45,166 nt of DNA from a virus (IMGVR_UViG_646311924_000016); one strand, 5' to 3'; numbered from the stretch's first letter, positions 33,074 to 35,226 are shown. Notes: generated by a model not told the origin, from the letters alone. Numbers and translations: made by a program.

Positions 33074-33298
33074 TCAACACACTGGCTGTAATTCAGCGGA
33101 TACCATTCGGCATTTATCAGTATTCATCACACACTCAACGGTGAATTCTTCATGCGTGGCATTCACTTCATATGTTCGTGAATAACATTCAGTGCATTTA
33201 CCTCTGAACACCTCTTCAAGCAGAACACGGCCATGTTGCAAAACACGGAACGGAATTGTTCCCTGAAAAGGTTTTACCGTTACCTGTAATTTCTTCAT
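33074..33298 (-). CDS. Hypothetical Cys-rich small protein (74 aa), translationally coupled to Rz
   Basis: Start overlaps the Rz stop (ATGA); four Cys in CxxC...C...C arrangement suggests a zinc ribbon; function unknown. Confidence 0.45.
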   Translation of the reverse strand: MKKLQVTVKPFQGTIPFRVLQHGRVLLEEVFRGKCTECYSRTYEVNATHEEFTVECVMNTDKCRMVSAELQPVC

Positions 33299-33789
33299 AC
33301 ATCCTCCGGATAATAAAAAGCCTGCTTAGTACACTGAGTGCGGATATAGTCCTGCGCCCCTTCCAGCTGCTTCTGCATTGTCATCAACCGTTCTCTGAGG
33401 ATGAAATAATCCCGTTCAGCGGTGTCTGCCAGTCGGGGGCCGGTTGCATTATCCACGCCGGAGGTGCCGGTGGCTTCACGCACGGTACCGGGGCAGGTGG
33501 CGTTGATCCGCAGGCGCTTACGACCAGCGGCAACATCAGCGCGCAGAGTTTCATTTTCAGCTCTCGCATCGGCTAATTCCCTCGAGTATCTGGCATCAAG
33601 TGCAGCAACATCACGCTGGCGCTGCTGCATATCAGTAATGGTTGCATTTGCCAGCTCCAGCTCACTGACTTTTTTATCGCGCTGCTCTTTGTAGGTTATG
33701 GCGTTATCACGGTAATGATTCAGTCCCAGACTAAGCGCACCACAGGCCACCAGCAGGGCAATGATGACCACGCACAGTACGCGGTTCAT
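33295..33789 (-). CDS. Rz: i-spanin Rz
   Basis: From ATG at 33787-33789: 'MNRVLCVVIIALLVACGALSLGLNHYRDNAITYKEQRDKK...QRQRDVAALDARYSRELADA' matches recalled lambda Rz. Confidence 0.9.
   Translation of the reverse strand: MNRVLCVVIIALLVACGALSLGLNHYRDNAITYKEQRDKKVSELELANATITDMQQRQRDVAALDARYSRELADARAENETLRADVAAGRKRLRINATCPGTVREATGTSGVDNATGPRLADTAERDYFILRERLMTMQKQLEGAQDYIRTQCTKQAFYYPEDV
33384..33569 (-). CDS. Rz1: o-spanin Rz1 (lipoprotein) embedded in the +1 frame of Rz
   Basis: 61 aa 'M...LPLVVSACGSTPPAPVPCVKPPAPPAWIMQPAPDWQTPLNGIISSSENG' with lipobox and Pro-rich region matching recalled lambda Rz1. Confidence 0.85.
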   Translation of the reverse strand: MRELKMKLCALMLPLVVSACGSTPPAPVPCVKPPAPPAWIMQPAPDWQTPLNGIISSSENG

Positions 33790-33790
33790 T

Positions 33791-33892
33791 TCACCACCAG
33801 CGTATCTGACCAATGAAATAACCGGAAGCCATAATCACAAACACCCGCCAGATAAGGATGAACTTCCAGGTGGATAATTTTTCAGCCATCAT
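33791..33892 (-). CDS. Candidate 33-aa hydrophobic peptide between endolysin and Rz
   Basis: 'MMAEKLSTWKFILIWRVFVIMASGYFIGQIRWW'; GGGAGA RBS 5 nt upstream of ATG (33890-33892); stop 2 nt before the Rz ATG. Unverified. Confidence 0.35.
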   Translation of the reverse strand: MMAEKLSTWKFILIWRVFVIMASGYFIGQIRWW

Positions 33893-34086
33893 TCGAATCT
33901 CCCGAATCAGTTTGCTAAAATCAAACACACTTTCTCCTTTGACTTTTCCGGAGTCAGGAAACACAAAACCCCGCTTGCGGTCAACAAACGGGCTTTTACT
34001 TTTATTCACTTAGTTTTTGCCAGTTCGCAGGATTTCGTGTTATCCGCCCGTGTGAGCAAACCGCATTTTTCAGCAAAATATTCTGC

Positions 34087-34620
34087 TTATCTGTCAATTC
34101 CCCAGCACGCCAGCGCGCTCTCCTGGTCACGCCGTGAGACCTGACCGTAGCAGTTGTTTGAGCGAATACGGCAGTCTCTGCCACCGTCCTTAATCCACCA
34201 GCGAATCGCCTCGCATGCTCCCCTGCGGTCACCAGCATTAATCCGTCTGTAAAACGTCGACGGGAAACACTTACCGGGGCCAATGTTGTACGGACAGAAT
34301 GACGCAATCCCCGCTTTCTGGGGTTCGGTCAGTGGCACTCTGATGTTTTTCTCCACCCATGCCAGCGCCTTATCACGTTCAATGGCGTTAACCTGGTCGC
34401 ATTTTTCCTTCGACAACTTCATGCCCGGGACGACAGGTTTACCATCCACCAGGATGGCACCGCGGCAGATGGTCCAGATACCCGCACCATCACGGTATGC
34501 CGTGGTGTGGTTACCTTCTTTTTCGTCAAGAAACTGGTCGAGGATTTCAGGCGCAGACGCCCCTGCACCAATCAGCGCCAGAACGGCAGCCGACAGGCCG
34601 TATCTGATTTTTGCGTTCAT
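34087..34620 (-). CDS. R: SAR endolysin (T4-lysozyme-like, phage 21 R type)
   Basis: 177 aa; N-terminal signal-anchor-release-like hydrophobic segment 'GLSAAVLALIGAGASAP' followed by lysozyme-like region. Confidence 0.85.
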   Translation of the reverse strand: MNAKIRYGLSAAVLALIGAGASAPEILDQFLDEKEGNHTTAYRDGAGIWTICRGAILVDGKPVVPGMKLSKEKCDQVNAIERDKALAWVEKNIRVPLTEPQKAGIASFCPYNIGPGKCFPSTFYRRINAGDRRGACEAIRWWIKDGGRDCRIRSNNCYGQVSRRDQESALACWGIDR

Positions 34621-34670
34621 GGATATTTATCAGGGTTTATCGATTTCAAATCCCTGGATATATTAAGTCT

Positions 34671-35018
34671 TCAGGCCAGCGGTGGAGTCTTCAGAGAACC
34701 CGTAATTATTCCCGGTAGTTTTCCTCTGTAGGTTATCAACACATCCTGCGCCTCTAAAATGATGGGCCGCTTTTCCGGCAACGGACCATCCCCTTCACAT
34801 AACCCGGCAGCAACATCCATGAAAAACTGCTTCGCCTGCTTTTTCGCCTCAGCTTCGTAAAACTCCAGCGTGGCACCTTCAGTACGGTCAAGACTAATCG
34901 CCACATCTGGCAACAACAGTGACGGATACCCACCAATTTCCAGTGCCACAGTAACAGTAATCTTATCCGGGTAATTATTTATCCCTTTAACAACCAGTTC
35001 GTATTTTTTCTTCATCAC
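34671..35018 (-). CDS. Hypothetical protein (115 aa) inserted between holin and endolysin
   Basis: Start overlaps the holin stop; no recognisable motif; soluble, acidic. Confidence 0.5.
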   Translation of the reverse strand: MMKKKYELVVKGINNYPDKITVTVALEIGGYPSLLLPDVAISLDRTEGATLEFYEAEAKKQAKQFFMDVAAGLCEGDGPLPEKRPIILEAQDVLITYRGKLPGIITGSLKTPPLA

Positions 35019-35019
35019 T

Positions 35020-35226
35020 TTACTCTCCCCGCACCGCCTTACGCCGGTCCTCTCTGATTTTGAAATACAGGTTAGTCAGATACGTCAGCAGGCCAAACAG
35101 CAGACTCCCCAGTACACCTATTGCCACCCACTGGGACGGAGAGACTTTGTCCAGCAGTTGCAGTAACCAGTATCCCGTCCCTACCGCTGACGTGGTGTAT
35201 GACACACCTGTTGTGATTTTTTCCAT
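35020..35226 (-). CDS. S: Pinholin (phage 21 S type)
   Basis: From ATG at 35224-35226: '[68 protein letters not shown]' matches recalled S21; ORF track shows a longer upstream-extended frame (to 35295). Confidence 0.85.

Follow-up and report, generated by a model that had tools for sequence, protein, structure and literature searches.

The lysis cassette of the Qin prophage in Escherichia coli K-12 (essQ-ydfR-rrrQ-rzpQ/rzoQ) contains a gene of the DUF1327/YdfR family that begins 4 nt after the stop codon of an S21-type holin gene and precedes the lysozyme gene. We analyzed a cassette with the same arrangement, and the three extra small genes that it contains, in a 45,166-nucleotide stretch of DNA from a virus (IMGVR_UViG_646311924_000016), referred to here, at its full length, as the window. 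The cassette lies on the minus strand at 33,074-35,226. In addition to the genes for a pinholin (S), a signal-anchor-release (SAR) endolysin (R) and the spanins Rz and Rz1, it has a DUF1327/YdfR gene between S and R, a gene for a 45-amino-acid (aa) membrane protein between R and Rz, and a gene for a 74-aa protein after Rz; all three extra frames are on the minus strand. Unlike the DUF1327 protein encoded here, K-12 YdfR has 103 aa, is 40% identical overall, and lacks the tail PEKRPIILEAQ..LKTPP. Qin also has no small open reading frame (ORF) between rrrQ and rzpQ, and rzpQ is followed by cspI and other genes instead of a 74-aa gene.

Two other described cassettes are close to this one. Phage H-19B (AF034975), which carries Shiga toxin (Stx) 1, has the same gene order with all three extra frames included, and the two are 98% identical over 92% of the region. 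However, in its GenBank record S, R and Rz are the sole annotated lysis genes and the sequence stops inside the 74-aa gene, and H-19B has stx1 and a functional late region, both of which were lost from the prophage in the window. The antirepressor cassettes of Stx phages (LC567831 and LC567835) share the S-DUF1327-R...Rz backbone and use the R|Rz junction as a slot for cargo. In those cassettes the slot contains a 189-aa Ant/KilAC protein gene and a 48-aa ORF rather than the hairpin and 45-aa gene found here. The antirepressor-bearing type is that of 933W and Sp5.

We found that the three junctions S|R, R|Rz and Rz|cos of this phage-21/H-19B-type cassette are probably recombination hot spots, each holding an independent moron-like gene that would be late-transcribed cargo and not part of the lysis machine. 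The survey covered about 160 related loci from viral contigs. Because these loci were selected for the presence of one or other of the genes, they show that combinations exist and do not give their frequencies. Sixteen loci had all three extra genes. The DUF1327 gene occurred with only the 45-aa gene in 45 loci and with only the 74-aa gene in 32; the 45-aa and 74-aa genes occurred together without DUF1327 in one. The 74-aa gene was the only one of the three in 11 loci, and the 45-aa gene in seven. Each junction also occurred empty: R directly after S, R and Rz overlapping at GTGA, and Rz with no 74-aa gene behind it. The sequence-only reading of this DNA had stated that the canonical phage 21-type cassette has none of the extra genes. 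An empty version of each junction does exist, and it is from such junctions in related loci that the canonical state was deduced here; the filled arrangement, however, is common, and ydfR is present even in K-12.

Every junction proved to be a mosaic slot in this survey. At S|R, the DUF1327 gene (52-100% identity) lies 4 nt after the holin gene and 45 to about 1500 nt from R; elsewhere R follows directly or an unrelated gene for a 123-213-aa protein takes that place. The distance from R to Rz is 17 nt (with the GTGA overlap), about 300, 490 or 996 nt. The alternatives at this junction are the overlap, a ~300-nt module with the 45-aa gene, other genes for small membrane proteins, and the antirepressor gene, which accounts for the 996-nt spacing. 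The 74-aa gene directly follows Rz wherever upstream sequence is present, across Rz alleles that are 62-100% identical, and it is absent from most loci that have the 45-aa gene. The G+C content of the extra genes (0.475 for DUF1327, 0.428 for the 45-aa gene and 0.418 for the 74-aa gene) is below the 0.52-0.56 of S, R and Rz. Based on the occurrence of all presence/absence combinations and on the AT-richer composition, we infer that the extra genes are accessory cargo and not an obligate unit. Each is absent or replaced by unrelated cargo in near-identical cassettes, which argues that they are not parts of the lysis machine.

The extra genes resemble the morons of lambdoid phages, such as lambda bor and lom and HK97 gp15 (a small membrane protein gene in the tail operon), in being variably present at the same junction between conserved late genes of close relatives and in differing from those genes in base composition. 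Classical morons (Juhala et al., 2000, as cited in PMC4104026) have their own promoter upstream and a terminator downstream. In contrast, we found no sense-strand promoter-like site upstream of any of the three extra genes, and the sole hairpin lies 35 nt before the start of the 45-aa gene, that is, upstream of it. With no space for sense promoters of their own, the extra genes would be transcribed with the Q-dependent late (lysis) message, and they would be translated by coupling to their neighbors.

The core of the cassette is that of phage 21 except that a dual start is absent. The S21-type pinholin (68 aa; 35020..35226, minus strand) matches PF04971, the family of class II holins with two transmembrane (TM) segments (E=1.4e-32, 63 of 64 profile positions), and is labeled a class II holin in a RefSeq record of 100% identity. 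The SAR endolysin (177 aa; 34087..34620, minus strand) is an R21-like lysozyme (PF00959, phrog_7) with a Gly/Ala-rich, weakly hydrophobic N-terminal segment at residues 9-27 (Kyte-Doolittle hydropathy, KD, 1.67) and an E-8-D-5-T catalytic motif that can be read in the translation. The Rz i-spanin (164 aa; 33295..33789, minus strand) matches PF03245 (E=7.6e-50), and the Rz1 o-spanin lipoprotein (61 aa; 33384..33569, minus strand; PF06085, E=1.7e-21) is embedded in its +1 frame, as in other phage-21-type cassettes. These four matches agree with the initial recognition of pinholin, SAR endolysin and Rz/Rz1. In the window sequence the pinholin has only one ATG, and we did not find the dual-start holin/antiholin motif of phage 21. 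The in-frame codons upstream of that ATG are ATA CAT CAG, where relatives have ATG TAT CAG or encode MKSM; that is, the frame reads ..IHQMEK, whereas the pinholins of relatives begin MYQMEK or MKSMDK. The dual-start antiholin form seems to be missing both here (35227-35245, minus strand) and in H-19B. An imperfect palindrome, GCAGAATATTTTGC (34073-34086, minus strand), directly follows the endolysin stop codon. It belongs to a noncoding stretch of ~95 nt, upstream of the module hairpin described below, that is conserved from E. coli to Salmonella phage SPN3UB, and it could be a protein-binding site.

The three extra frames have the properties of genes. Each belongs to a Pfam or PHROG family, none of the homologues contains a stop codon within the frame, and pairwise dN/dS among unique full-length homologues was 0.135 for the 45-aa gene, 0.27 for the 74-aa gene and 0.40 for DUF1327 (at low divergence), compared with 0.08 for S and R; since the pairs are linked by phylogeny, the values show a trend and are no test. 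That is, the coding signature and conservation in relatives proposed as a check on the sequence-only reading were present for each gene, and its description of the frames as tightly coupled to the core also stood: Shine-Dalgarno (SD) sequences lie inside the upstream gene, gaps are 1-4 nt, and one junction is an ATGA overlap. Among 5426 complete E. coli genomes, 3158 (58%) had a match to the DUF1327 gene, 898 (17%) to the hairpin with the 45-aa gene and 1243 (23%) to the 74-aa gene. The three proteins had no NCBIfam names and no PADLOC defense match at E<=0.1. We found no paper that contained the peptide strings; the comparative papers on Stx phages mention S, R and Rz/Rz1 only, and the main text of a paper on small RNAs (sRNAs) identified by Hfq crosslinking and immunoprecipitation does not cover the junction.

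The gene between R and Rz is preceded by a hairpin, and the two form a module that recurs in unrelated settings. The gene (33791..33928, minus strand) has a GTG start and encodes a 45-aa protein, predicted to be a tail-anchored protein of the inner membrane, that matches phrog_6632, a 45-position profile, from end to end. It had been read from sequence as a 33-aa hydrophobic peptide starting at an ATG at 33892 and ending 2 nt before Rz. That peptide is the C-terminal two-thirds of the conserved ORF, which starts at GTG 33928 behind the SD sequence AAGGAG, and the gap to the Rz ATG is 1 nt. The 12 N-terminal residues gained in this way (with FDFSKLIREIR) are the best conserved in the family. 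We rejected a longer, 72-aa frame starting at GTG 34009, since its first 27 codons cross the hairpin and vary by insertions and deletions among relatives. A DNA pattern scan yielded 113 copies of the module ORF, of which 73 started with GTG, 40 with TTG and none with ATG. Homologues were 64% identical in Salmonella phages and 48% identical in Pseudomonas phages.

The strong ribosome-binding site that had been attributed to the shorter peptide also has support. A conserved GGGAG lies 8-9 nt before an internal ATG, codon 14 (33889), that is invariant (15 of 15 copies). It is possible that a shorter second product of 32 aa, essentially the peptide noticed at first, is made from this internal start. 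The full-length protein is small (<60 aa) and hydrophobic, with one TM segment (maximum KD 1.69 in the window allele versus 2.13 in the consensus). Its predicted form is an N-in tail anchor in which a charged, amphipathic head is followed by the single TM segment. The window allele has two changes that are restricted to this O111 prophage lineage, L28R in the middle of the TM segment (33845-33847) and a G.G mismatch in the hairpin stem, and both may be decay in a dead prophage. The gene is unannotated in the RefSeq record of 100% identity, which was produced by the Prokaryotic Genome Annotation Pipeline (PGAP).

The hairpin (33960..34001, not assigned to a strand; stem-loop 33992..33970) was found in a terminator scan, has A-tract and T-tract flanks, and forms the 5' boundary of the mobile module. 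It was upstream of every homologue that we found, in E. coli, Salmonella, Citrobacter, Pantoea, Yersinia, Sodalis, Providencia and Pseudomonas. We compared 15 diverse copies. The hairpin had 12 pairs with 94.9% of the cells paired, and five of the pairs had compensatory changes. Covariation was 0.307, compared to 0.115 in shuffled alignments (0 of 500 shuffles reached the observed value) and 0.03-0.11 when the partners were slid. By its sequence features (a GC-rich stem, a T-run and compensatory change) it is a predicted intrinsic terminator. Between the hairpin and the start codon is a leader (33929..33969, minus strand) in which, from folds of the complementary strand, a second, small hairpin pairs with or abuts the SD sequence (GACU..AGUC, then AAGGAG). 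Among homologues its arms covary (CCTTG/CAAGG, CATG/CATG, CGTTA/TAACG and GGCAG/CTGCC). The order in the module is thus hairpin, ~35 nt with the SD-pairing small hairpin, GTG or TTG start, and an ORF of 44-48 aa. With a non-AUG start and an SD sequence in a stem, synthesis of the 45-aa protein is arranged to be weak, and the gene is transferred along with its own control elements.

We found this module in four kinds of context: SAR-endolysin|Rz junctions in prophages of E. coli, Salmonella and Citrobacter; between a GH19-type endolysin gene and an unrelated i-spanin gene in Citrobacter; the interval from baseplate gene V to gene W, in Salmonella (SEN34), E. coli (Rac-SA53), Pantoea and Yersinia phages and prophages; and the tail regions of Pseudomonas phages. 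Lysis cassettes of three different endolysin/spanin types had it. The next gene begins -4 to +15 nt from the module's stop codon, so that insertion of the module preserves coupling to the downstream gene. As a self-contained unit it inserts between translationally coupled late genes, endolysin|spanin in one case and baseplate V|W in another. A comparison of filled and empty R|Rz junctions gave no clean insertion boundaries, as the N-terminus of Rz differed too. No sense promoter was found for the small gene: the gap from hairpin to start is only 35 nt, and -10-like motifs located upstream of the hairpin are not conserved in the baseplate contexts. No Rfam family was found in 33000-35400, even at E<=5. 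In other loci the R|Rz slot contains genes for a 50-aa protein ending AIRWW and for 71- and 73-aa proteins (L026 and L029; L195 and L172), and in the same group a TTG-start variant of the module is followed by two or three more tiny ORFs.

The first codons of the 45-aa gene change very little. We examined codon use in the 15 diverse copies, which came from searches that leave codon choice unconstrained. Codons 3 (GAT), 4 (xTT), 5 (AGC), 10 (GAG), 12 (CGA) and 14 (ATG) were the same in all 15, and codon 6 was AAA in 14 of 15; elsewhere in the protein the same amino acids use two to four codons. The median pairwise dS was 0.28 in codons 2-14, a suppression of about five-fold relative to the 1.40 of codons 15-42, for which 45 of the 78 pairs were saturated, and codons for identical residues differed in 17% versus 49% of comparisons, all of these pairs being non-independent. 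RNAalifold detected no conserved sense-strand structure across the frozen codons. The suppressed synonymous change fits a conserved extended -10 promoter on the opposite strand, within codons 3-12 (33893..33921, plus strand), with the motif TCGnnn, a 17-nt spacer, TGn, and TAAAAT or TAATAT (TCGnnn-17-TGnTAAWAT). In the window the putative elements are a -35 sequence TCGAAT (33893-33898), a 17-nt spacer, TG (33913-33914) and a -10 sequence TAAAAT (33916-33921). The predicted antisense RNA would run for ~75 nt from ~33928 to ~34002, cover the start codon and SD sequence, and end at the hairpin. The predicted RNA, 75-80 nt long, has two hairpins and a U-tail, with z-scores of -3 to -4.8 in homologues and -1.4 for the window copy. 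The internal start, GGGAG with its ATG, could be an alternative source of the codon constraint. In the reading that we favor, output of the protein is kept low by the non-AUG start and the hairpin-held SD sequence, possibly also by the antisense RNA, and the protein would be a tightly gated membrane effector.

The gene between S and R (34671..35015, minus strand; 114 aa from its ATG) belongs to the DUF1327/YdfR family (PF07041, phrog_406). The score was 155.4 bits, with a gathering cutoff of 25, over profile positions 1-92 of 93, and PGAP names the identical protein 'YdfR family protein'. It had been described as a 115-aa frame whose start overlaps the holin stop codon. The holin TAA is at 35022-35020, the alternative GTG at 35018 and the ATG at 35015; that is, the genes abut without overlapping, and homologues and the PGAP annotation begin at the ATG. 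The SD sequence, GGGGAGAG, is within the last codons of the holin gene, and the two genes are translationally coupled in this sense. A hydropathy scan detected no TM segment (maximum KD 1.18), and the protein is soluble and cytoplasmic. We considered an envelope or lipoprotein function and rejected it, as a hydrophobic segment is absent. An AlphaFold2 (AF2) model made from a 22-sequence alignment has a beta-beta-beta-alpha arrangement for residues 1-73 (block-mean pLDDT, the confidence score of the model, 72-90); the conserved tail mentioned above was not modeled with confidence. A sequence search found no solved structure for DUF1327.

Findings on K-12 YdfR point to a function in RNA metabolism. 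According to a 2026 study (PMC13232886), the first 72 residues of K-12 YdfR mediate binding to RNase E's catalytic half (residues 1-597), as seen by two-hybrid assay and by pull-down; the protein co-purifies with RNA (nucleic acid that is resistant to DNase); and its overproduction alters few transcripts and does not impair growth. By alignment, the window protein has the same N-domain that carries the RNase E interaction in K-12 YdfR. Our best guess, by homology, is that DUF1327 is a cytoplasmic late protein that binds RNase E's catalytic domain, RNA, or both. It would act on RNA metabolism late in infection and not on the envelope.

DUF1327 proteins form a mosaic family that occurs only in Escherichia and Shigella, and some members have a coiled-coil extension. 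In the long variants, that C-terminal extension corresponds to the N-terminal portion of the other gene found in the S|R slot. This second family, of 123-213 aa, begins MNHEEMNQR..ELNKKLSVL.PSEDEKKRRDEQ (L026, L030 and L105; P0168, P0072 and P0184). In P0184 the same coiled-coil tail is joined to an N-domain like that of the 74-aa protein. Two of the three extra gene families therefore have a common fusion partner.

The gene after Rz (33074..33298, minus strand) is the last before the cos/terminase region and encodes the 74-aa protein (phrog_2571; WP_000736096.1, 'hypothetical protein'). As had been noted, its frame overlaps the Rz stop codon; the overlap is ATGA, and the SD sequence is GGAGG. 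The description of the protein as Cys-rich did not hold across the family. Of its five cysteines, C35 alone is invariant, C56 is almost invariant and the other three (C38, C63 and C74) vary, and the CxxC motif and the last two cysteines are not conserved. The AF2 model is all-beta (pLDDT 87.6). We rejected a zinc-binding or zinc-ribbon protein, as paired CxxC motifs are not conserved and the model is an all-beta sandwich. The protein has no TM segment or signal peptide (maximum KD 0.44), and an envelope moron of the Bor or Lom type was rejected because there is no hydrophobic N-terminus, signal peptide or lipobox. A search with the profile found no solved structure (E=0.14, noise only). The family is small, with 23 clusters in a word-indexed search and 42 related clusters among 1.84 billion representatives, and full-length members reach down to about 60% identity. 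From the model, the protein is most likely a soluble beta-sandwich passenger with no identifiable activity.

The sequence-only reading had left two functions side by side, lysis regulators or cargo. Cargo fits better, given the independent assortment of the genes, their replacement in sibling cassettes, their AT-richness, the small gene in baseplate and tail operons, and the harmlessness of YdfR overproduction; lysis regulation is less supported. Several findings nevertheless weigh against cargo. None of the three genes has the sigma-70 promoter upstream and terminator downstream that are typical of a moron. The loci were chosen by gene presence and include many close relatives, so that counts and pairwise statistics are not independent. 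The DUF1327 gene lies directly behind an S21-type holin gene in all loci examined, save those that end before the holin, and four database ORFs (P0123, P0143, P0149 and P0065) join an S21-type holin in frame to DUF1327. These fusions arise by frameshift near the holin stop codon and may be sequencing artifacts or natural. Because of this near-exclusive place and the occasional fusions, a holin-linked role of DUF1327 is conceivable. In three unrelated cassette types the module directly precedes an i-spanin gene, and the R|Rz slot repeatedly contains other small, C-terminally anchored membrane proteins of different families; this resembles the non-homologous replacement of one functional analogue by another and hints at a role related to lysis. 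Finally, the pinholin allele lacks a dual-start antiholin, which makes an external regulator plausible.

In a rival reading, one or more of the extra proteins modulate the timing of lysis, with DUF1327 as a cytoplasmic partner or antiholin-like regulator of the C-terminal tail of the pinholin, and the 45-aa protein, perhaps as 45- and 32-aa isoforms, regulating the pinholin, SAR release or the spanin. We consider this rather unlikely but a live alternative. It is supported, the last two points weighing most, by the tight translational coupling to S and Rz, the position of DUF1327 behind S21-type holin genes in the loci examined (save incomplete ones) and its fusions to them, the module 1-4 nt upstream of i-spanin genes in three cassette types, other small tail-anchored TM proteins in the same slot, and the loss of the holin's own antiholin start. 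Small membrane proteins that regulate SAR endolysins are known, among them the Mu gp25 releasin, and S21 71/68 and lambda S107/S105 are dual-start pairs of holin and antiholin. The 45-aa gene likewise belongs to a lysis cassette and encodes a short membrane protein for which there are two conserved candidate starts (GTG at codon 1, ATG at codon 14), and its GGGAG and invariant internal ATG resemble a holin/antiholin dual start. Unlike them, it has a single TM segment and also occurs outside lysis cassettes. Where the module lies between the two baseplate genes V and W, or in the tail clusters of Pseudomonas, lysis genes are far away, so the gene does not behave as a holin/antiholin gene bound to lysis cassettes. 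In addition, cassettes without each extra gene are common, including those of phage types that lyse normally; the module also lies beside a GH19-type endolysin whose N-terminus, read by eye, has no SAR-like hydrophobic segment; and overproduction of YdfR had no growth or lysis phenotype and a minor effect on the transcriptome (PMC13232886). On the cargo reading, the three extra genes would be dispensable for lysis.

A different possibility concerns the module only. The hairpin and 45-aa ORF could be a type I toxin-antitoxin-like locus in the style of symE/symR, with a small membrane-active peptide repressed by a cis-antisense RNA, and could serve prophage maintenance, abortive infection or superinfection exclusion and not lysis; we regard this as a tentative reading with perhaps one chance in a few. 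In type I loci such as symE/symR and the hok/sok family, the antisense promoter is inside the 5' coding region of the toxin gene. The module is similar in having a small gene under tight translational control and a putative antisense RNA of ~75 nt that covers the SD sequence and start and ends at a terminator. The product is small and hydrophobic with a single TM segment, AUG is never used as the start and the SD sequence is sequestered, and the cassette moves among unrelated phage contexts. The conserved opposite-strand extended -10 promoter, with optimal 17-nt spacing, would explain the GAT, xTT, AGC and CGA codons; the bidirectional hairpin is exactly where the RNA would terminate; and the predicted two-hairpin RNA of 75-80 nt has low z-scores (-3 to -4.8) in homologues. 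However, there is no sequence similarity to a known family, no Rfam family and no PADLOC match, and the toxin mRNA has no dedicated sense promoter and would need read-through of the late operon, unlike that of classical type I loci. The -35 element matches only three of six positions, the frozen codons could stem from constraints on the initiation region or from the internal start, and G-U pairs in both orientations favor neither strand as the one on which the hairpin acts. In a wider form, also held with low confidence, the 45-aa gene is the coding part of an undescribed, widely mobile micro-cassette that comprises a terminator hairpin acting in both directions, a second hairpin sequestering the SD sequence, an obligatory GTG or TTG start, a tail-anchored membrane peptide and a controlling cis-antisense RNA of ~75 nt, and that would be type-I-toxin-antitoxin-like or an antisense-gated membrane effector in late operons of unrelated phages of Enterobacterales and Pseudomonas. 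That the extra frames are chance ORFs or decaying remnants is very improbable. The prophage is defective (a portal frameshift, and IS1203 in place of the Q region), the window allele of the small gene has L28R and the stem mismatch, and PGAP did not annotate that ORF here. In contrast, the frames are intact in all homologues and under purifying selection, conservation of the small protein reaches Pseudomonas, the genes belong to Pfam or PHROG families, and the 74-aa protein has a confidently predicted fold.

The whole window matches chromosomes of E. coli O111 and related enterohemorrhagic E. coli at 100% identity by sequence comparison. It contains a lambdoid prophage of the H-19B/Stx1 type, inserted beside ompN/uspF. 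The prophage is defective: the portal gene is frameshifted (24925-27347), and a copy of IS1203 with a shortened neighbor (38361-39574) is found where H-19B-type phages have the O/P replication genes, nin, Q, pR' and stx. Since IS1203 sits in the place of Q and pR', the cassette no longer has its late promoter and antiterminator, and it is probably silent here. A strong terminator-like hairpin (35281-35307, minus strand; 11 pairs and a T-run) separates the nanS-p-like esterase gene from the lysis genes, ~55 nt upstream of where the holin gene begins.

Further cargo of this prophage includes three DUF1076 (NleG-like) genes in tandem, lom/ail and, within the tail region, sodC, as well as dicB and ydfD ('lysis protein YdfD') near the immunity region (jointly 7549-9549, 11311-11910, 15612-16139 and 43054-43245). 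Three Rfam matches exceeded the gathering score: AgvB, an anti-GcvB sRNA (37674-37735, plus strand); STnc100 (37736-37926, minus strand), which is convergent and just upstream of the nanS-p-like gene; and DicF (40360-40411, plus strand) in the immunity region.

The arrangement is already in databases and, as originally posed, the finding is ordinary: thousands of E. coli genomes, K-12 among them, have the same genes annotated, and these look like interchangeable passengers in the operon for lysis. The module is of mild interest and is the sole result beyond the first reading; if there is a new element, it is possibly, and at most, the interpretation of the hairpin and small ORF. It recurs as a compact unit in which coding and regulatory information show signs of overlap. 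Because the lysis cassettes of Stx prophages control toxin release, the effect on lysis or RNA decay of DUF1327, present in 58% of complete E. coli genomes, could be a useful question. If the antisense control and membrane activity are true, the module would represent a new family of small, regulated membrane proteins in phage late operons, and it would explain sequence that genome annotators have skipped.

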